Notes under the pieces: model-generated
The model's database searches: none
What the model was told of the DNA's origin: nothing
What the model saw: only the letters and a program-made list of their open reading frames with translations
Assembly: GCA_011835815.1 (NCBI GenBank)
Contig: GCA_011835815.1_3615.1
Source of the DNA: a phage
Length of the DNA: 64,000 nucleotides
Direction: 5' to 3' (one strand)
Program-made: the position numbers and the translations under genes
Shown: piece by piece, positions 10,298 to 53,213 of the stretch
How the letters are laid out: each line of letters starts with the position of its first letter
Position numbering within the stretch: position 1 is the stretch's first letter

Positions 10298-10559
10298 ATT
10301 CTCCAAACTGTGTGTGGATACTATCACGGTAGCGGTAATGTGTCAACAGCAACGCCGCGAGGGTTTGGTTAAAATCCGAGCGTATGGTGATTTGGGTCAA
10401 AACGGACGTGCGTTCTCGCTACGCTCGAAAAAGAGAGTTGTTTGTAGGAAGCTCTTAAACGCTCTGTAAGGAGATTATCTGTCCAAGGTATGCAATCGTG
10501 CACCAGATAAAGAAAAGGACGCCACAGAGCGTCCTAGGTGTCTTAAATTTGATATTTTG

Positions 10560-10871
10560 CTATACCCATGATGGCTTATCAAGGTTGGAGTAGCTGAAAG
10601 GTGTCAAAAGGTGACTGTCAAAATCTCTCAAACTATCCAGATCTTTTTCCTCGTCCTGACACCATCTGTGCCTGCATTTATTGTTGTAGTGCATAGAATG
10701 CATGGCGTTCTGCAACTTAACAGGCACAAGTGATTCCGGAGTAGATAGTATTGTTGGGTATGCCAGAACCACCTCAAACAGTGGAAACACATCGAAACTA
10801 AAATCTACCTCTGCAGAGGTTGATGGCATGTAGGAGTATTTAGCCGTCTTTGTAGACATAATCCACCTCAC
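10560..10871 (-). CDS. hypothetical protein
   Basis: 103-aa ORF, translationally coupled to upstream gene. Confidence 0.5.
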   Translation of the reverse strand: MRWIMSTKTAKYSYMPSTSAEVDFSFDVFPLFEVVLAYPTILSTPESLVPVKLQNAMHSMHYNNKCRHRWCQDEEKDLDSLRDFDSHLLTPFSYSNLDKPSWV

Positions 10872-44361: not shown

Positions 44362-45123
44362 TTAAAGTTCCATAAAGTTTTCTACAGTTTCAATAAATGC
44401 TTTATCAGAGAAAGCGTCAACAGCACCGTTAAACCATACAGGGATCCCGCGATCCTCATATTGATAAAGGTCGCTACGTGGAATGCCACTTCCATCTGCA
44501 CTCTGCGAATCATACTTGTTTACAATCAGCAGTTTTGTGCCTTTACAAGTAGCAGGAAACAATTCCCAGTTAAAATTAATAACTGTGTTAGAACAACCTA
44601 CCAGGATCACCATATCATTGCTTGTGAGAGATGTCAACAGGTCATACATGTCTGTATACTTAGGAGCAACCTCACCGAAGAACACTACATTGGGCTTAAC
44701 CCAGGTATACTTGCCTGTATCTACCTCCGTGTATCCGATATTTTTAATTACATCATTACCTTCAGCATCTTCGTAGGTGATTTCAGGCAAATACCCGTGG
44801 ACATGTAAAATATCTTCATGTTTTACACCAGCACGCTCCAGCAAATCATCTACATTGGTAGTAAGGTTGATCACACGACCAGACCAGCGGGAATACCACT
44901 CAGAGATCCGAAGATGTGCAAGGTTAGGATCAACACTGCCCAGAGCTACACGACGTGCATTGTAAAAGTCATGCACCTTATAGTAGTTCTTGGCAAAGGT
45001 GTGGATGTTGCACACCTCATCGATGCTGAAATTCTCCCACATTGCAGTGCTACCAGATCGGAAAGTGGGAATACCAGATTCAGCGCTCAAACCAGCACCG
45101 GAGATAATAATCAGTCGTCGCAT
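44362..45123 (-). CDS. Sir2-family (sirtuin-like) NAD-dependent protein
   Basis: 253 aa; N-terminal IIISGAGLSAESGIPTFRS matches the Sir2 GAG(I/V)S...GIP.FR NAD-binding signature. Confidence 0.75.
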   Translation of the reverse strand: MRRLIIISGAGLSAESGIPTFRSGSTAMWENFSIDEVCNIHTFAKNYYKVHDFYNARRVALGSVDPNLAHLRISEWYSRWSGRVINLTTNVDDLLERAGVKHEDILHVHGYLPEITYEDAEGNDVIKNIGYTEVDTGKYTWVKPNVVFFGEVAPKYTDMYDLLTSLTSNDMVILVGCSNTVINFNWELFPATCKGTKLLIVNKYDSQSADGSGIPRSDLYQYEDRGIPVWFNGAVDAFSDKAFIETVENFMEL

Positions 45124-45131
45124 AAGTGTCC

Positions 45132-45512
45132 TCAGTAGATGTTTTGTTTAATCTCTATTCCAAACTTCTTGAATGAGTCAGCAGCAAGCATAAATTTACG
45201 AGCTGCCGATGGATTAGAAGTATGCACGAAAATAATCACGTTGTCAATAAGTGGTGGCTTTCCGAATACAAGTTTCTCCTCTAGCGCAGAGAAGCAGTCG
45301 TACCCTTCAAGCACTTCACCTAGATCATTGTCAAAATGCCACTCAGAAACGCGCCTGTAGAGCTTTCTATTATCGTTAATAAAATCCATGAACTCAGAAG
45401 AGTTCTTCAGCCAAAGAGCATCTTGGATTCCGTAATTTGACGGATCTCTCAAGTCATCTAGCCACACAATCAACTTCTTCATTGCATATAGTCCTCGTTG
45501 TGAAAATAGCAA
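45132..45512 (-). CDS. hypothetical protein
   Basis: 126-aa ORF directly upstream of the Sir2-like gene. Confidence 0.5.
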   Translation of the reverse strand: MLFSQRGLYAMKKLIVWLDDLRDPSNYGIQDALWLKNSSEFMDFINDNRKLYRRVSEWHFDNDLGEVLEGYDCFSALEEKLVFGKPPLIDNVIIFVHTSNPSAARKFMLAADSFKKFGIEIKQNIY

Positions 45513-46414
45513 TCAAGTATCTCACGGCGTTCCTGCTCCAGGAGGCAGTTCCACACATCTTCTGTGTAATTGCTACGAATGAAGTTTACCATGCCATAAA
45601 ACTCTTCGTCAATACGTTTAAAGATATCATCATCCCAAATCTTCCAAGCTTTACCCCTCATTACGGCCTTCCGTGCCAAATAGTATGGAGACTTGATCTT
45701 CAGCTGCAGGTCATAAGGGTAGTAAGGCTTACGGATCATATACCCTTCGCCCCTTGTTTCTGCAGCTAATTCTTTTGCATAGCTGAACGGGATTTCACGC
45801 ACAGTGTGAGGACGTTTTGCACCAAGGTATTTGGCAATCCCATCTAAAGCTGCTTCTGGTAGCATTATTCCAGAATCATTATATCTGCAACCTATCAAAT
45901 ATGCGCCATGGTCTTCTTGAACAATATGCGGATCTGAAGGGTGACAAATTTCAAACATGAATGTCATGTTTTCATTGCCCATAACCTTCTTGATAAGATC
46001 TAAATTACCACATTGCTCTTGGATGGTTTCCTTTGCAAGGTTACAATATGGAGAATCAAGAGACCCGGTTGTTGAGAACAATAGGTCACCTTTATGAGAT
46101 GATACCACACCAAGGAATCCGTTCTTTTTCTCTACCGCAGTCACAAGCTTATTGTCAGGCAGGTTGGTGGAGTTTTCTCCCAAGTTAAACACTTTTGTGA
46201 AGGGCCATGCCACAACATTTCCTTCATTACCTACAACAATGCCTCGGCACTCCAGTAAACGAGGGGACAAATGCCATAAATTGTTGTAAAATACTTTTCT
46301 AGCATATTTATAGATCTTTAACCCGAGATCTGGGTAATACCTACTGGTTACAAGACCTTTGTCAACTAGGTCGTCTGCATTAAAATACTTCATCATACGT
46401 TCCTCATTTGTCAT
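45479..46414 (-). CDS. RNA ligase, T4 Rnl1 (RnlA) family
   Basis: 311 aa; LECRGIVVGN, KVFNLGEN, AVEKKNGFLGVVS (KxxG lysine motif), FMFEICHPSDPHIV and GYMIRKP...LKIKSPYY are collinear with T4 RnlA blocks as I recall them. Confidence 0.8.
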   Translation of the reverse strand: MTNEERMMKYFNADDLVDKGLVTSRYYPDLGLKIYKYARKVFYNNLWHLSPRLLECRGIVVGNEGNVVAWPFTKVFNLGENSTNLPDNKLVTAVEKKNGFLGVVSSHKGDLLFSTTGSLDSPYCNLAKETIQEQCGNLDLIKKVMGNENMTFMFEICHPSDPHIVQEDHGAYLIGCRYNDSGIMLPEAALDGIAKYLGAKRPHTVREIPFSYAKELAAETRGEGYMIRKPYYPYDLQLKIKSPYYLARKAVMRGKAWKIWDDDIFKRIDEEFYGMVNFIRSNYTEDVWNCLLEQERREILDCYFHNEDYMQ

Positions 46415-46514
46415 TTTGTCAGTCTATCCTGCCACACAAATAACCTAGTGTCAACACTTGAAATTAACAAAACAGTTAGATATACTATCGTTGAAATTAA
46501 AACGGAGGGTCACT

Positions 46515-46925
46515 ATGTCTAAAATGCTATATATCGTGCGTGGTCTACCAGGGTCTGGCAAATCAACACTGGCAAATGCGCTATCTTTAGAGGGTCTGTA
46601 TCCACATTTTGAGAACGACATGTTCTGGTATGACGATGACGGCAATTACAACTGGGATGCAAGTAAAGTAACACTCGCAGCGAAATGGTGCAAAGATAAC
46701 GTAGAAGATATGATGCGTATGGGATACGACCGTATCGTGGTAAGTAATACGTTTACAAAAGAAAAACATGTGCAGGAATATGTTGACATGGCAATCAGTC
46801 ATGGGTATAGTTATACCGTGATCGTGGTTGAAAACCGCCACGGTAATAAAAGCATTCATGATGTTCCAGACAGGGTTGTGGATCGTATGGAACGCCAGCT
46901 TAAAAACTGCATTAAACTTAAATGA
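46515..46925 (+). CDS. P-loop kinase, candidate polynucleotide 5'-kinase
   Basis: ATG at 46515 with GGAGGG SD (track ORF starts 46458); MLYIVRGLPGSGKSTLA Walker A; divergent from the RNA ligase. Confidence 0.6.
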   Translation: MSKMLYIVRGLPGSGKSTLANALSLEGLYPHFENDMFWYDDDGNYNWDASKVTLAAKWCKDNVEDMMRMGYDRIVVSNTFTKEKHVQEYVDMAISHGYSYTVIVVENRHGNKSIHDVPDRVVDRMERQLKNCIKLK

Positions 46926-46932
46926 GGAATGT

Positions 46933-47487
46933 ATGAAATACTTTGTAACAAGCGACACACACTTTCTCCACCAGCGGGTCATGGAGTTCGATTCATGTCA
47001 AAAACACAGATCTCAGTATGATCACAATCTTGACAGTATGAATGCGGGAATCATCACCAAGTGGAACTCTGTTGTGTCACCTGCAGACACTGTGTTTCAC
47101 TTGGGAGATATTGCGTGCACTAATGATAAGAATATCAACAAATTGCTCCCAGATATTCTAAATATGTTGAACGGACATATTATTCTTGTTCGTGGTAACC
47201 ATGACACAAGGACGACTGTCAGAATTATGAAAGAGTTCGGTCATGAGGTTGTAGATTATTACGAGCTTCGCCACAACAAGAATTTGATCTGTATGAGCCA
47301 TTACCAGTTTGCAAAGTGGAACAGAAAGCCTCACGGATCAGTCCAACTGTTCGGTCATGCTCACGGAACCACACAGCAGTTGTTTGGCAGGCAGTTTGAT
47401 GTCGGTTGGGATGTGTGGGGGAGACTCTTACCATTAGAAGAGGCATACCGTATTGCAATGAGTCTTGCTATTGACAGCGGGGAGTAA
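46933..47487 (+). CDS. calcineurin-like metallophosphoesterase, candidate 2',3'-phosphatase
   Basis: ATG at 46933 with GAGGA SD; VTSDTHF, GDIACTN and VRGNHD metallophosphatase motifs. Confidence 0.65.
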   Translation: MKYFVTSDTHFLHQRVMEFDSCQKHRSQYDHNLDSMNAGIITKWNSVVSPADTVFHLGDIACTNDKNINKLLPDILNMLNGHIILVRGNHDTRTTVRIMKEFGHEVVDYYELRHNKNLICMSHYQFAKWNRKPHGSVQLFGHAHGTTQQLFGRQFDVGWDVWGRLLPLEEAYRIAMSLAIDSGE

Positions 47488-49989: not shown

Positions 49990-50328
49990 ATGGCGGATAC
50001 AACTAAAAAGCGTCGCCGTAGAGGCAGACCTCTGAAAGAGGAGTCCAACGCCATTCAGCTAGAGAAGAACATCCTTGATATGAAGGAATCTTTTATAGCG
50101 ATGGTTCCAGAAGCTCATAAAGTTTTAAGAGAGCTGATGTTGGACCCGAAAACCAAACAAAATATTCGTCAAAGCATTGCAGAGTATGTTCTTGATAAGG
50201 CAGACCGAATGCAGGAAGAATATGATGAGATGTTTGGTGAAGAGGAAGAGGTGGTAGTAGAAGAGGCTGAAAAACCAGCACCTTTTATGCCGTTTACCAC
50301 AGAAATACAGCCTGTTAGCAATAGCTAA
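49990..50328 (+). CDS. hypothetical protein with basic N-terminus and acidic C-terminus
   Basis: ATG at 49990 with GGAGGA SD (track ORF starts 49870); MADTTKKRRRRGRPLKEE. Confidence 0.55.
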   Translation: MADTTKKRRRRGRPLKEESNAIQLEKNILDMKESFIAMVPEAHKVLRELMLDPKTKQNIRQSIAEYVLDKADRMQEEYDEMFGEEEEVVVEEAEKPAPFMPFTTEIQPVSNS

Positions 50329-50337
50329 AATATTTTC

Positions 50338-50366
50338 TTGACAAACTTTGCTTAACAGTGTAATAT
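50338..50366 (+). promoter_or_regulatory. sigma70-like promoter for the tRNA cluster
   Basis: TTGACA-N17-TAATAT about 60 bp upstream of the first tRNA. Confidence 0.55.
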
Positions 50367-50424
50367 TGTAAACATGGTCTCCCACCTTTTCTGGCGGCTA
50401 AGGTGTAAAAGAAAGCCACCCAGT

Positions 50425-50499
50425 GCCCTGTTAGCTTAGTGGATAAAGCAGCGGCCTTCTAAGCCGTTGACACTGGTTCGAGTCCAGTACGGGGTGCCA
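50425..50499 (+). tRNA. tRNA-Arg (anticodon UCU)
   Basis: Hand-folded cloverleaf: acceptor GCCCTGT/ACGGGGT, anticodon loop CTTCTAA, T-loop GGTTCGAGTCC, encoded CCA. Confidence 0.75.
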
Positions 50500-50629
50500 A
50501 GTTCTTTTTAATGTAGCTTACTTTAGCAGAGTAAATCTTCGGCAAGTGGCGGTAACCACTTTACCGATACCTCATAGTTAGTGGTGAGAACACTAGCTAT
50601 TTTAAAAAGAATTTAAATATTAGTATTTA

Positions 50630-50717
50630 GGTGAGTTAATTCCGTAGGGGTAGCGGGGCAGACTGTAAATCTGTTATCATTGCGATTCGGGTGGTTCGAC
50701 TCCATCACTCACCACCA
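50630..50717 (+). tRNA. tRNA-Tyr (anticodon GUA), class II
   Basis: Acceptor GGTGAGT/ACTCACC, anticodon arm GCAGA-CTGTAAA-TCTGT, long variable arm, T-loop GGTTCGACTCC, CCA; D-arm register uncertain. Confidence 0.65.
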
Positions 50718-50821
50718 AATTTATATTTTTAAATGCATAAATCATACAGATAATGGCATTGATATTTATCGTCGTTTATACTAGTCACTAACTGCTCGAA
50801 AATCAGTGTCATTATCAGTAT

Positions 50822-50912
50822 AATTTATAAAGGAGGGTAGGGAGCAATGGTGCTCAAGCGGTCTTGAAAACCGCCCCGTTGAGGATGACTCGATGATGGT
50901 TCGATTCCATTA
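50822..50912 (+). tRNA. tRNA-Ser (anticodon UGA), class II
   Basis: Acceptor GGAGGGT/ACTCTCC, anticodon arm GCGGT-CTTGAAA-ACCGC, long variable arm, T-loop GGTTCGATTCC, CCA. Confidence 0.65.
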
Positions 50913-51020
50913 CTCTCCGCCACATTGTTGACCTTGTAATTAAGCGAAAGCCGGAAGCAGAACCGGATTATCAAATGTTACAGTCGTCATCGCCGACTAG
51001 CAACATGGTCAACATACTGA

Positions 51021-51119
51021 GCTAGGTAAGCCCTTTGGCAAGGGCGAGGATTTTTAATCCTGAAAATAGACGAGGTAGTCGTTGAATACATAGGTGGTTC
51101 GATTCCATCGCCTAGCACC
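51021..51119 (+). tRNA. atypical tRNA-like gene (about 97 nt), anticodon possibly UUU (Lys)
   Basis: Perfect acceptor GCTAGGT/GCCTAGC, D-arm GCCC-TTTGGCAA-GGGC, anticodon-like hairpin GAGGA-TTTTTAA-TCCTG, canonical T-arm; but about 30 nt inserted between anticodon stem and T-stem. Confidence 0.4.
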
Positions 51120-51124
51120 TTTTT

Positions 51125-51200
51125 GCTGATGTAGCACAATCGGTAGTGCAATTGATTTGTAATCAATAGGTTGTAGGTTCAAGTCCTGCCATCAGCACCA
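51125..51200 (+). tRNA. tRNA-Thr (anticodon UGU)
   Basis: Acceptor GCTGATG/CATCAGC, D-stem GCAC/GTGC, anticodon arm ATTGA-TTTGTAA-TCAAT, T-loop GGTTCAAGTCC, CCA. Confidence 0.75.
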
Positions 51201-51201
51201 A

Positions 51202-51276
51202 GGCCCTGTAGCTGGAAGGTTCAAGCAAGCGACTCATAATCGCCAGACGGTGGTTCAATTCCACCCAGGGCCACCA
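51202..51276 (+). tRNA. tRNA-Met or Ile2 (anticodon CAU)
   Basis: Acceptor GGCCCTG/CAGGGCC, anticodon loop CTCATAA, T-loop GGTTCAATTCC, CCA; not initiator-like. Confidence 0.7.
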
Positions 51277-51287
51277 AATAGTAAATA

Positions 51288-51364
51288 CTCCGCGTAGCTC
51301 AGCTTGGTAGAGCGCCTGATTTGGGATCAGGAGGTCGAGTGTTCGAATCACTCCGTGGAGACCA
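51288..51364 (+). tRNA. tRNA-Pro (anticodon UGG)
   Basis: Acceptor CTCCGCG/CGTGGAG, D-stem GCTC/GAGC, anticodon arm CCTGA-TTTGGGA-TCAGG, T-loop GTTCGAATC, CCA. Confidence 0.75.
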
Positions 51365-51410
51365 CTTTCAGTTATACTTTAAACATATACAAACAAAAGG
51401 AACCTTTAAA

Positions 51411-51680
51411 ATGTATACACTTAAAATTGTAGAGCGTGTAAATCCAACCCATACCGTAGATTTTCGTGACGATTTCAATCCTCTGGCTGTAAATCTTCGA
51501 GAGTCATATCATGAACTCAGCTGCGATGCAGTGGTGGTCTTTTTTGAAGACAACTCTGAAGGGGCAGTAGCTTGTGTTGTTGATAGTGAGCAGAAGTTTT
51601 ATATTTACAGAGATGTAGATGCATACTTGATGAATGAAAATGCAGTTACTGTTAGAATCATCCACCGAGTGCCTCGATAA
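51411..51680 (+). CDS. hypothetical protein
   Basis: ATG at 51411 (track ORF starts at TTG inside tRNA-Pro); 89 aa; terminator follows. Confidence 0.5.
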   Translation: MYTLKIVERVNPTHTVDFRDDFNPLAVNLRESYHELSCDAVVVFFEDNSEGAVACVVDSEQKFYIYRDVDAYLMNENAVTVRIIHRVPR

Positions 51681-51732: not shown

Positions 51733-51768
51733 CCCGCCCCGTTAGCTGCATAGCTGCGGGGTTTTTTC
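51733..51768 (+). terminator. rho-independent terminator
   Basis: GC-rich hairpin ending CGGGG followed by TTTTTT. Confidence 0.55.
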
Positions 51769-52468: not shown

Positions 52469-52893
52469 TGTCTAAGATTTACGGACCGTGTTCTGAAAAG
52501 CAGAAGATGATCCTCGAAAACGATGCAGATATTTTGGTAATCGGCGGTGCCGCAGGGTCTGGCAAGTCGTTCCTCTTGCAGTTGATGCCGCTTAAAATTA
52601 TTGATGACCCCCACAGCTCTGTGGTTATGTTCCGAAGAACAACCCCACAGTTGGAAGGTGAGGGTGGGCTATGGCCTAAAGCAGTAGCTATTTATAGTGA
52701 TCTGCCTGAAAACATTAAGCCAAAGTTCAGAGAGAAGGATCATAAGTTCATTTTCCCACGGTTTGATCCGAGCACTGGCAAGTGGGATAGAAGCAAAAAG
52801 GGAGCTGTTGTAAAATACTGCCACATGGAGTATGTCCAAGATAAGCTTAACCATCAAGGTCTTGAGTACACCATGGTTTGCTTCGATGAGGGT
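52468..52893 (+). CDS. terL: terminase large subunit, exon 1 (ATPase N-terminus)
   Basis: Walker A VIGGAAGSGKS and Walker B-like MVCFDEG; reading frame is broken by a stop just after FDEG where the intron begins. Confidence 0.8.
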
Positions 52894-53213
52894 TAATTTG
52901 TAGCTCTCGTAAAACCTCCCTAATTGCGGGGAAATCTTTACTATTAATACCACCAACCTGTCATGGTAACATGATAGAGGCTTCGAAGAGAGATCGAAGG
53001 TATGGTAACAGTGTGTTAATTTAGATAATCCGCAGCGAAGCATCCGAGAGGATGAACGTTCAACGACTAGTCGAAAGACGTAGAATCAAGCGATTCGAAA
53101 CGGGAGGGTAAGCGGTTGTTGTCGCTTATAAGATATAGTCTGGTCTGCATGGAGACATGCAGCTGCCTGAAAAATGGCGGGGCAAGACTAGCGACCTTGC
53201 CCGAACATAGACG
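52894..53213 (+). other. group I self-splicing intron (no ORF) within terL
   Basis: Conserved core elements in order: P AATTGCGGGGAAA, Q AATCCGCAGC, R GTTCAACGACTA, S AAGATATAGTC; exon ends in U that can pair with internal guide GCTCTC; intron ends in G; P9-like hairpins; boundaries +/- 3 nt. Confidence 0.8.

Follow-up and report, generated by a model that had tools for sequence, protein, structure and literature searches.

The rV5-type tRNA operon of a Vequintavirus: six tRNAs, a conserved tRNA-like RNA and further structured RNAs

Introduction

The tRNA regions of bacteriophages T4 and T5 encode, besides tRNAs, small stable RNAs whose function has been an open question since the 1970s. The system closest to the locus considered here is that of phage rV5. 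In the rV5 record (DQ832317), the homologous stretch carries annotations for a 'Sigma70-type promoter; P(tRNA)' and for trnR, trnY, trnS, trnT, trnM, and trnP, and 'six tRNAs', together with a codon-usage argument, were reported for this phage by Kropinski et al. (2013; PMC3606486). We analyzed the corresponding tRNA cluster, positions 50425-51364 of a 64,000-nucleotide stretch of phage DNA (GenBank assembly GCA_011835815.1, contig GCA_011835815.1_3615.1; hereafter, the window), which an initial annotation, prepared from the sequence alone, had described as seven tRNAs under a strong promoter of their own.

The cluster consists of six tRNAs and one non-decoding tRNA-like RNA, and its three long spacers are themselves structured RNAs. 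We consider it likely that the locus is an rV5-type tRNA operon of a Vequintavirus, in which codon compensation is combined with extra structured RNAs. The cluster, its promoter, and the codon-usage rationale have all been published and annotated for rV5; the core finding was therefore already known, and the cluster itself is not new. What is added here are two conserved RNA families that are unannotated or mis-annotated, a spacer shared with phage lambda, and the probable reassignment of the CAU tRNA to tRNA-Ile2.

Results

Identity of the window and its six tRNAs

Region 50300-51420 matched 729 phage records, with Vequintavirus (rV5-like) E. coli myophages at the top; the closest relative by this region was Vequintavirus BP9, which is 99.3% identical over the full length. 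Judged by these matches, the window is from a Vequintavirus (rV5-like) phage. It shares with the rV5 tRNA cluster (DQ832317/NC_011041) the genus, the gene order, P(tRNA), the six tRNAs, and the codon argument, and is ca. 98% identical to it outside an insertion. Unlike rV5, the window contains a ca. 130-nt insertion, made up of an RNA module that we call element 1 and a 14-nt linker, and a different allele of tRNA-Tyr, both of which it has in common with Phapecoctavirus ESCO5. The rV5 record also departs from the reading given here in that the CAU tRNA is named Met and the tRNA-like RNA is left unannotated. Approximately 18 records (MG0656xx) named 'Campylobacter phage' (host Campylobacter jejuni) were 98-100% identical to rV5-like coliphages in this region, and their Campylobacter host labels look doubtful.

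The strand, isotypes, and coordinates that the initial annotation had given for the cluster were borne out by ARAGORN and Rfam (Table 1). Its count of seven tRNAs was right for six of them; the seventh, referred to as the 'atypical element', is not a tRNA of this kind, and both the length and the sequence of its loop vary among homologs. ARAGORN called Arg(tct), Ser(tga), Thr(tgt), Met(cat), and Pro(tgg), and listed the atypical element as 'tRNA-??? (atcc)'. At the gathering score, Rfam family RF00005 recovered Arg, Thr, CAU, and Pro at 60-77 bits, as well as tRNA-Tyr(GUA) at 50630-50714, which was missed by ARAGORN (39 bits versus a threshold of 29). Thus, Arg, Thr, CAU, and Pro were called by both methods, Tyr by Rfam only, and Ser by ARAGORN only. 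The best Rfam match of tRNA-Ser was tRNA-Sec, with 42 bits, below the threshold of 47. Among annotated phage tRNAs, the gene shares 88% identity with tRNA-Ser(UGA) of D6 and 75% with T5 tRNA-Ser1.

All six tRNAs lie on the plus strand and have an encoded CCA. Rfam alignments and inspection of the sequence revealed in each of them a 7-nt anticodon loop, U33, a purine at position 37, and a discriminator base that fits the isotype, as in canonical elongator tRNAs; the identity elements expected for each isotype are well established. tRNA-Arg(UCU) probably reads AGG as well as AGA.

The initial annotation had left the CAU tRNA as Met or Ile. Comparison of the acceptor and anticodon arms decided in favor of Ile2 and against Met. 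The acceptor sequence, GGCCCUG, is that of T4 tRNA-Ile, with the pairs C4-G69 and C5-G68 in the stem, and the anticodon arm, GCGACUCAUAAUCGC, is shared with the D6 CAU tRNA and with E. coli ileX. Identity to elongator and initiator Met tRNAs was only 61-66%. The determinants recognized by TilS (C4-G69, C5-G68, and an ileX-type arm) are therefore all present and initiator features are absent; since G1-C72 is paired, the tRNA is not an initiator. In the BASEL phage JeffSchatz, the homologous gene is annotated, on the basis of tRNAscan, as tRNA-Ile ATA. Based on the acceptor stem, the anticodon arm, and the JeffSchatz annotation, we conclude that the CAU tRNA is most likely a tRNA-Ile2 that would read AUA after a predicted lysidine modification.

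A conserved tRNA-like RNA that does not appear to decode

The atypical element scored 29.4 bits with RF00005 (threshold, 29) in a scan of the small region only, and was not listed in the gathering scan of the whole window. It folds into a 7-bp acceptor stem, a 6-bp D stem with a 4-nt loop, preceded by A8, and a canonical T arm with a UUCGAUU loop. In the window copy, a 5-bp 'anticodon' stem closes a 5-nt loop, UUUUA, and a variable region of ca. 30 nt contains a hairpin. The 3' end is A73-CC-U in Vequintavirus and U73-CCA in most other genera.

BLAST searches, with the window and Seunavirus copies as queries, detected this RNA in ca. 173 phage records, from Vequintavirus, Avunavirus, Seunavirus, Henunavirus (an Erwinia phage), Mydovirus (a Klebsiella phage), Cronobacter and Proteus phages, and one Schitoviridae phage. 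Additional copies were found with a covariance model in phi92-like contigs, so that the RNA is spread over six Vequintavirinae genera, phi92-like phages, and one Schitoviridae phage. GenBank labels for it are diverse: tRNA-OTHER (Asp|Gly), tRNA-Lys (AAA), tRNA-???(atcc), tRNA-TERM (in an Erwinia phage), or none.

Covariation was assessed in an 11-sequence alignment, with controls in which the pairing partners were slid. In this alignment, 99.2% of cells were paired, compared to at most 48% in slid controls, and compensatory changes on both sides of the helix were seen in 10 of the 23 cloverleaf pairs, with the acceptor, D, 'anticodon', and T helices all included. A tRNA-like fold is therefore backed by compensatory substitutions in its helices. 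A covariance model of this RNA, R2, separated the family (79 bits or higher) from ordinary tRNAs (no more than 37 bits). The hairpin in the variable region differs between genera; the two single-stranded segments that flank it, UGAAAAUA and AAUACAUAGG, are near-invariant.

Features expected of a decoding tRNA, such as a 7-nt loop and an anticodon kept among orthologs, U8, U33, and an Rfam score clear of the threshold, were not found. Position 8 is an invariant A. Pair 5 of the 'anticodon' stem covaries from U-A to C-G, leaving a loop of 5-6 nt in most members. Loop length ranges from 5 to 8 nt and loop sequence changes with the genus (UUUUA, UUAUA, CAUCA, CAUCCA, CCUCAA); versions with a 4-bp stem have the loop CAUCAAA, with A33. 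We conclude from the alignment that the RNA is under strong structural selection, and that it is tRNA-shaped but not a conserved decoder.

tRNA-Sec (RF01852) resembles this RNA in having a long variable arm and a D stem of 6 bp with a 4-nt loop, and the loop CAUCAAA of Henunavirus, Ithacavirus, and phi92-like copies is one base away from the tRNA-Sec loop, CUUCAAA. Unlike tRNA-Sec, the tRNA-like RNA has a 7/5 rather than 8/5 acceptor/T arrangement, A33 rather than U33, and A or U rather than G as a discriminator, and the anticodon-like triplet of the window copy is not UCA. Within clan CL00001, the best family for the window copy was RF00005 and not tRNA-Sec (lower-scoring overlapping matches within the clan are not listed). 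For the window copy, assignments to tRNA-Sec or to an ochre or opal suppressor were rejected on the grounds that neither UCA nor UUA occurs in the 7-nt frame, that relatives have A33, and that tRNA-Sec is not the best family of the clan.

In other genera, the tRNA-like RNA starts 2 nt past the 3' end of a tRNA. This spacing, together with the U73-CCA encoded in most other genera, suggests tRNA-type processing, and the RNA is probably processed like a tRNA. By analogy with the T4 and T5 tRNA regions, it would probably be excised in the same way and accumulate as a stable RNA. Our best guess as to its role is that it may bind or decoy a factor that recognizes tRNAs. A search of the literature on T4/T5 stable RNAs and on tRNA-like phage RNAs yielded no relevant paper among those available.

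A 'hypothetical tRNA' is described in phi92 upstream of tRNA-Leu (locus positions 1248-1334). It was supported neither by ARAGORN-type calls in relatives nor by model R2, and may be another odd tRNA-like module.

Element 1 and the tRNA-Tyr cassette

The gap between tRNA-Arg and tRNA-Tyr is 4 nt in rV5, which lacks element 1, and is longer in the window by the length of the insertion. Element 1 was present in 182 phage records. Copies were found in Phapecoctavirus ESCO5 (98.5% identical), Justusliebigvirus (phi92-like; 71-83%), T5-like Tequintavirus (ca. 80%), Vequintavirus, Certrevirus PBES02, and a Klebsiella phage, and a diverged copy in Avunavirus Av-05. All copies whose context was examined lie inside tRNA clusters: the element begins at the CCA of the upstream tRNA or downstream of a promoter, and extends to the start of tRNA-Tyr or tRNA-Lys. 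A scan of IMG/VR with a 17-mer core of element 1 returned 18 loci, of which only three contained the element, the remainder being chance matches.

The sequence of element 1 is highly conserved, with, for example, an invariant CUUACUUUAGCAGAGUAAA. Within its helices, 97.5% of cells were paired (slid controls, at most 53%) and four pairs, amounting to 13 cells, contained a compensatory change. Searches of Rfam 15 yielded no match at E-values up to 10, and element 1 was thus rejected as a known ribozyme, riboswitch, or Y-RNA-like RNA; a match to YrlA (25 bits versus a threshold of 69) spanned two ordinary tRNAs and was spurious. The core occurs once in the window, which rejects a repeated mobile element of this genome.

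The tRNA-Tyr of the window is 100% identical to the ESCO5 allele and differs from the rV5 allele at many positions, some of the differences being compensatory. Since tRNA-Tyr and element 1 both match ESCO5, while rV5 has another tRNA-Tyr allele and no element 1, the segment at ca. 50499-50720 is, by these alignments, a cassette exchanged with Phapecoctavirus-like phages.

In the T5-like phage HildyBeyeler (locus 2420-2620), element 1 forms the leader between a strong tRNA-Tyr promoter and tRNA-Tyr. T5 (AY543070, locus 10429-10610, minus strand) has the same strong tRNA-Tyr promoter, but an unrelated, T5-specific 96-nt leader. Because T5-like phages have such alternative leaders, the 'tRNA-Tyr promoter' fragment used in published work on retron evasion may include one, depending on the phage.

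Other spacers, mosaicism, and dispensability

Spacer 2 forms a long imperfect hairpin (Table 1) and was confined to Vequintavirus, where copies are at least 95% identical. Its Rfam 15 matches were limited to microRNA precursors, at chance level. It is a plausible candidate for an RNase III or other processing site, and the promoter-like site within it could serve as a promoter ahead of tRNA-Ser.

Spacer 3 had no match in Rfam 15 at E-values up to 10. Its core forms two small hairpins, one of which has a compensatory change. In lambda (J02459), a counterpart with 87% identity occupies positions 44866-44934, a part of the late leader that lies between orf-64 and S and carries no annotation; in the P1-like phage D6 (NC_050154, locus 1201-1266), a counterpart with 88% identity directly follows tRNA-Ser(UGA). 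Of 5426 complete E. coli genomes, 426 also contained the core, without annotation, on prophages and P1-like plasmids. These matches point to tRNA-Ser(UGA) and spacer 3 being shared with P1-like and lambdoid phages.

In phage 241Ecol014PP (OR062943, locus 1324-1665), the tRNA-Pro position of a near-identical cluster is occupied by a gene for a 113-aa HNH endonuclease, which suggests that homing endonucleases move through the tRNA regions of Vequintavirus. The tRNA region of T4 contains segB, and that of T5 contains several HNH genes; the mosaic structure of the cluster is consistent with the traffic of homing endonucleases described for such regions of phage genomes. Phage V18 (NC_041937, locus ca. 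951-1047) has a deletion that takes out tRNA-Ser(UGA) and both spacers and leaves a fusion of two halves, the 5' one from a tRNA-Tyr gene and the 3' one from the tRNA-like RNA; tRNA-Pro was also undetected. V18 is a deposited phage genome, so that at least some hosts do not require these elements. The comparison of genomes indicates that modules of the operon are exchangeable and individually dispensable on some hosts.

Codon usage

Codons were counted in 82 non-overlapping open reading frames (ORFs) of the window (44,952 nt; 42.9% GC for the window) and compared with an approximate E. coli K-12 codon table. By this table, AGA was, among all 61 codons, the one most enriched in the phage (5.2-fold), making up 23% of Arg codons versus 4% in the host. 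The six codons cognate to the tRNAs had enrichment ranks of 1 (AGA), 4 (ACA), 9 (AUA), 15 (UAC), 19 (UCA), and 25 (CCA), which is above chance (Mann-Whitney rank-sum test over 61 codons, p=0.002). AGG (rank 2), CCU (5), UCU (8), and ACU (10) might be readable too, if U34 has a wobble-extending modification. For rV5, the published host and phage values are 5.1% and 26% for AGA, 14.6% and 35% for ACA, and 19.1% and 29% for CCA, respectively (PMC3606486). The suggestion of the initial annotation that the tRNAs may offset codon bias is thus supported by this comparison of phage with host codon usage, as well as by the rV5 publication.

The tRNAs mostly decode A-ending codons, which are rare in E. 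coli and common in a phage of 43% GC. Given that the cognate codons are rare in the host and common in the phage, the main effect of the tRNAs would be to raise decoding capacity for phage mRNAs, a benefit that we infer from the observed enrichment.

Promoter and predicted transcription

The TTGACA-N17-TAATAT promoter that had been proposed ahead of the cluster was confirmed as a sequence feature at 50338-50366, where its rV5 homolog is annotated as P(tRNA). The motif TTGACA-N17-TAWWAT occurs three times in the window, with 0.02 occurrences expected by chance. Downstream of the cluster, no terminator was found between tRNA-Pro and an 89-aa ORF; a terminator-like hairpin is located 3' of the ORF, at 51746-51759, in agreement with a terminator annotated in phage Murica. 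The absence of a terminator after tRNA-Pro and the position of the hairpin make it probable that the ORF is co-transcribed with the tRNA operon. The ORF product had no Pfam match, and PHROG 8729, to which it belongs, is of unknown function. A role of the flanking ORFs as tRNA-related proteins was rejected: they fall into PHROGs of unknown function only and have no Pfam match.

Transcription would be initiated by the host σ70 RNA polymerase at the promoter at 50338-50366. It would yield a single polycistronic precursor that spans the whole series of RNA modules and, probably, the small ORF, up to the terminator at ca. 51750. Release of products by RNase P and 3' trimming enzymes is established for the T4 tRNA cluster, and, by analogy, the same host enzymes would free the products here, namely six tRNAs with an encoded CCA: Arg-UCU, Tyr-GUA, Ser-UGA, Thr-UGU, Ile2-CAU, and Pro-UGG.

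Neighboring genes

Upstream of the cluster (Table 1), an RNA ligase of the Rnl1 family, an AAA_33 kinase-like protein, and a metallophosphoesterase are encoded in a divergent arrangement (45479-47487); these genes look like a split, T4-like set for RNA end healing and sealing. Murica, a close relative, has an annotated HPF-like gene. The RNA repair enzymes and HPF homolog that the initial annotation had cited as context are thus present in the sequence and in the Murica annotation, respectively. Such a context fits an investment against tRNA-targeting immunity, a fit that is not proof.

Further downstream, the gene for the terminase large subunit contains a group I catalytic intron at 52884-53162 (plus strand), which matched the full-length model of Rfam RF00028 with 84.1 bits. 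In the rV5 record, the terminase large-subunit gene is joined from three pieces (ORF64ABC).

Table 1. Features of the tRNA operon and its surroundings, in window coordinates
Feature	Position	Strand	Evidence and remarks
Sir2-family protein	44362-45123		next to the RNA ligase, kinase-like, and metallophosphoesterase genes
Rnl1-family RNA ligase	45479-46414	-	3-5 kb upstream of cluster
AAA_33 kinase-like P-loop protein	46458-46925		3-5 kb upstream of cluster
Metallophosphoesterase	46828-47487		3-5 kb upstream of cluster
σ70-type promoter, TTGACA-N17-TAATAT	50338-50366	+	consensus score 10/12, -35 hexamer perfect; rV5 site annotated P(tRNA)
Operon 5' leader, 58 nt	50367-50424	+	no significant structure, fold z-score +0.86
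tRNA-Arg(UCU), CCA encoded	50425-50499	+	ARAGORN; Rfam 67.8 bits
Element 1, four-way-junction RNA with 13-bp closing stem and three hairpins	50500-50615	+	fold z-score -3.4
tRNA-Tyr(GUA), type II, A73, CCA encoded, ESCO5-type allele	50630-50717	+	Rfam 39 bits
Spacer 2, long imperfect hairpin of ca. 30 bp	50718-50831	+	fold z-score -4.9; 0/200 shuffles as stable
Weak promoter-like site in spacer 2, TCGAAA-N17-TATAAT	50796-50824	+	ends 7 nt before tRNA-Ser
tRNA-Ser(UGA), type II, G73, CCA encoded	50832-50922	+	ARAGORN
Spacer 3, cloverleaf-like, core 50938-51005 (68 nt)	50923-51020	+	fold z-score -2.6
Non-decoding tRNA-like RNA	51021-51119	+	RF00005 29.4 bits; ARAGORN '???'; fold z-score -3.4
tRNA-Thr(UGU), CCA encoded	51125-51200	+	ARAGORN; Rfam 76.8 bits
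tRNA with anticodon CAU, most likely tRNA-Ile2	51202-51276	+	Rfam 60 bits
tRNA-Pro(UGG), CCA encoded	51288-51364	+	ARAGORN; Rfam 66.4 bits; 85% identical to T4 tRNA-Pro
89-aa ORF, rV5 ORF68 homolog, function unassigned	51411-51680	+	PHROG 8729

Discussion

The reading that we consider likely, an rV5-type operon that combines codon compensation with extra structured RNAs, has several observations against it. Enrichment of UCA (1.4-fold) and CCA (1.3-fold) is modest, and UAC and UAU are barely enriched; codon compensation accounts well for Arg, Thr, and Ile2, only weakly for Ser and Pro, and next to not at all for Tyr. The host codon table was an approximate one; the published rV5 numbers agree in direction. 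V18 keeps only the Arg, Thr, and CAU tRNAs, with Tyr, Ser(UGA), the tRNA-like RNA, and Pro not intact. Finally, promoter use, co-transcription of the ORF, and RNase P processing are all inferred from sequence and by analogy.

Other explanations were considered for the odd RNAs. The tRNA-like RNA could be a decoding tRNA after all, a tRNA-Lys(UUU) in Vequintavirus and a suppressor in relatives, with an odd body that may make it resistant to nucleases. Read with a 4-bp stem, the window copy has the loop UUUUUAA, close to CUUUUAA of E. coli tRNA-Lys, and A73 is the LysRS discriminator; the Rfam tRNA score of 29.4 bits, the CCA encoded by relatives, and the labels tRNA-Lys in several records, those of BASEL phages included, and tRNA-TERM in an Erwinia phage point the same way. 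On one scaffold, however, the putative anticodon changes between close genera (UUU, UAU, AUC, UCA, plus 8-nt loops), the covarying fifth stem pair shuts the loop to 5-6 nt in most members, 7-nt-loop versions carry A33, and position 8 is A rather than U. In addition, a variable region of ca. 30 nt with invariant single-stranded flanks is unknown in any tRNA-Lys, and the Vequintavirus 3' end is ACC-U. We therefore regard a decoding role as highly improbable; its specific form, a tRNA-Lys(UUU) resistant to anticodon nucleases, deduced from loop UUUUUAA and A73, was ruled out by the loops of other homologs and by the loop-closing covariation. It is also rather unlikely that the tRNA-like RNA and element 1 lack a function in their own right, and are processing scaffolds or decaying tRNA remnants that would aid excision of flanking tRNAs or hitch-hike with them. 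Such a view would account for the observations that both always adjoin tRNAs, that the former is lost in V18 and the latter is missing from rV5, and that T5 has an unrelated leader where element 1 would sit. Decay is contradicted by compensation in every helix of the tRNA-like RNA across at least seven genera and three families, and a mere spacer would not need conserved unpaired sequence, such as the invariant single-stranded motifs of the tRNA-like RNA (e.g., AAUACAUAGG) or the near-invariant loops and junctions that element 1 has maintained across phage families. At the other extreme, and in our opinion improbable, the operon would carry two undescribed families of trans-acting structured RNAs, a tRNA-like decoy and a mobile element 1. 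The tRNA-Lys(UUU) loop is a target of PrrC, RloC, and PARIS. The fast-evolving loop mimic, tRNA-Lys(UUU)-like in Vequintavirus, could then decoy or inhibit tRNA-targeting immunity or another tRNA-binding factor. Element 1 could spread as a cassette across unrelated coliphage families, modulating the expression, processing, or protection of the tRNA-Tyr or tRNA-Lys for which it is the leader.

The operon as a whole might also be chiefly anti-defence, a tentative view that is compatible with codon compensation. Phage tRNAs would then replace host tRNAs cleaved or depleted by retron-Eco7 PtuAB, PrrC/RloC, PARIS, Schlafen-type nucleases, or OLD, and would act beside the nearby RNA ligase and end-healing enzymes. 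T4 counters PrrC with Rnl1 and Pnkp, and the genes for an Rnl1-family ligase, AAA_33 kinase-like protein, and metallophosphoesterase 3-5 kb upstream of the cluster can be counted in favor of this view. So can tRNA-Tyr: UAC and UAU are hardly enriched, and codon bias therefore does not account for its carriage; it is 87% identical over 61 nt to T5 tRNA-Tyr and lies downstream of a near-consensus promoter. The tRNA-Tyr of T5 and SP15, expressed from a strong promoter, was reported to rescue infection from retron-Eco7, and tRNA-Lys to rescue it from PrrC170 (PMC11555353); in other published work, T5 tRNA-Lys counters PARIS. Against a chiefly anti-defence operon, the isoacceptor set is largely that of T4, which is usually explained by codon compensation; the Arg and Tyr anticodon loops appear to match those of their E. 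coli counterparts; and the cluster has no bona fide tRNA-Lys, the commonest nuclease target. tRNA-Tyr, in turn, has the attributes of a defence evader, since its isotype is a nuclease target, it is a homolog of a proven rescuer (PMC11555353), and its promoter is near-consensus. Because of this homology with T5 tRNA-Tyr, replacement of a host tRNA attacked by defence systems is plausible for tRNA-Tyr only, within an operon that we continue to see as one of codon compensation with extra structured RNAs.

In ca. 170 GenBank phage records, an RNA labelled tRNA-Lys, tRNA-OTHER, or tRNA-TERM/suppressor, or left without a label, is this conserved non-decoding tRNA-like RNA; element 1 is a second conserved structured RNA, in ca. 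180 records, with neither annotation nor an Rfam family. Both families have covariation support and natural presence/absence variants (rV5 versus the window for element 1, V18 for the tRNA-like RNA), and the phage group is widely used, in the BASEL collection and in O157 biocontrol. The question of their function is thus testable. If it were true that either RNA blocks tRNA-targeting immunity, it would represent a new class of RNA-based counter-defence.

The T4 tRNA region contains eight tRNAs, the stable RNAs rnaC and rnaD, and segB. Like the locus described here, it is a polycistronic cluster of tightly spaced tRNAs; it also holds small stable RNAs and a homing endonuclease. Five of the six isoacceptors of the window, Arg(UCU), Ile(CAU), Thr(UGU), Ser(UGA), and Pro(UGG), are shared with T4, which lacks Tyr, while the window lacks Gln, Leu, and Gly. 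Neither blastn nor covariance models revealed similarity of rnaC or rnaD to the tRNA-like RNA or to element 1. T5 (AY543070) encodes stable RNAs with unknown functions, RNAI, RNAIII, RNAIV, RNA1, RNA2, RNA2H, RNA3, and RNAX. Element 1 was not found in the tRNA region of the T5 record (25-50 kb), and the T5 stable RNAs matched neither model R1 nor model R2, nor were they matched by blastn; R2, in particular, had no match to RNA1, RNA2, or RNA3. On these grounds, we rejected the idea that the odd elements are homologs of T4 rnaC/rnaD or of the T5 stable RNAs. By sequence and model, the tRNA-like RNA is a distinct family, and its likeness to the stable RNAs of T4 and T5 is one of kind, not of family. 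That likeness can be seen in the layout of the T5 region, where small stable RNAs, some of them called tRNA-like, are found between tRNA genes past strong early promoters, with HNH endonucleases nearby.

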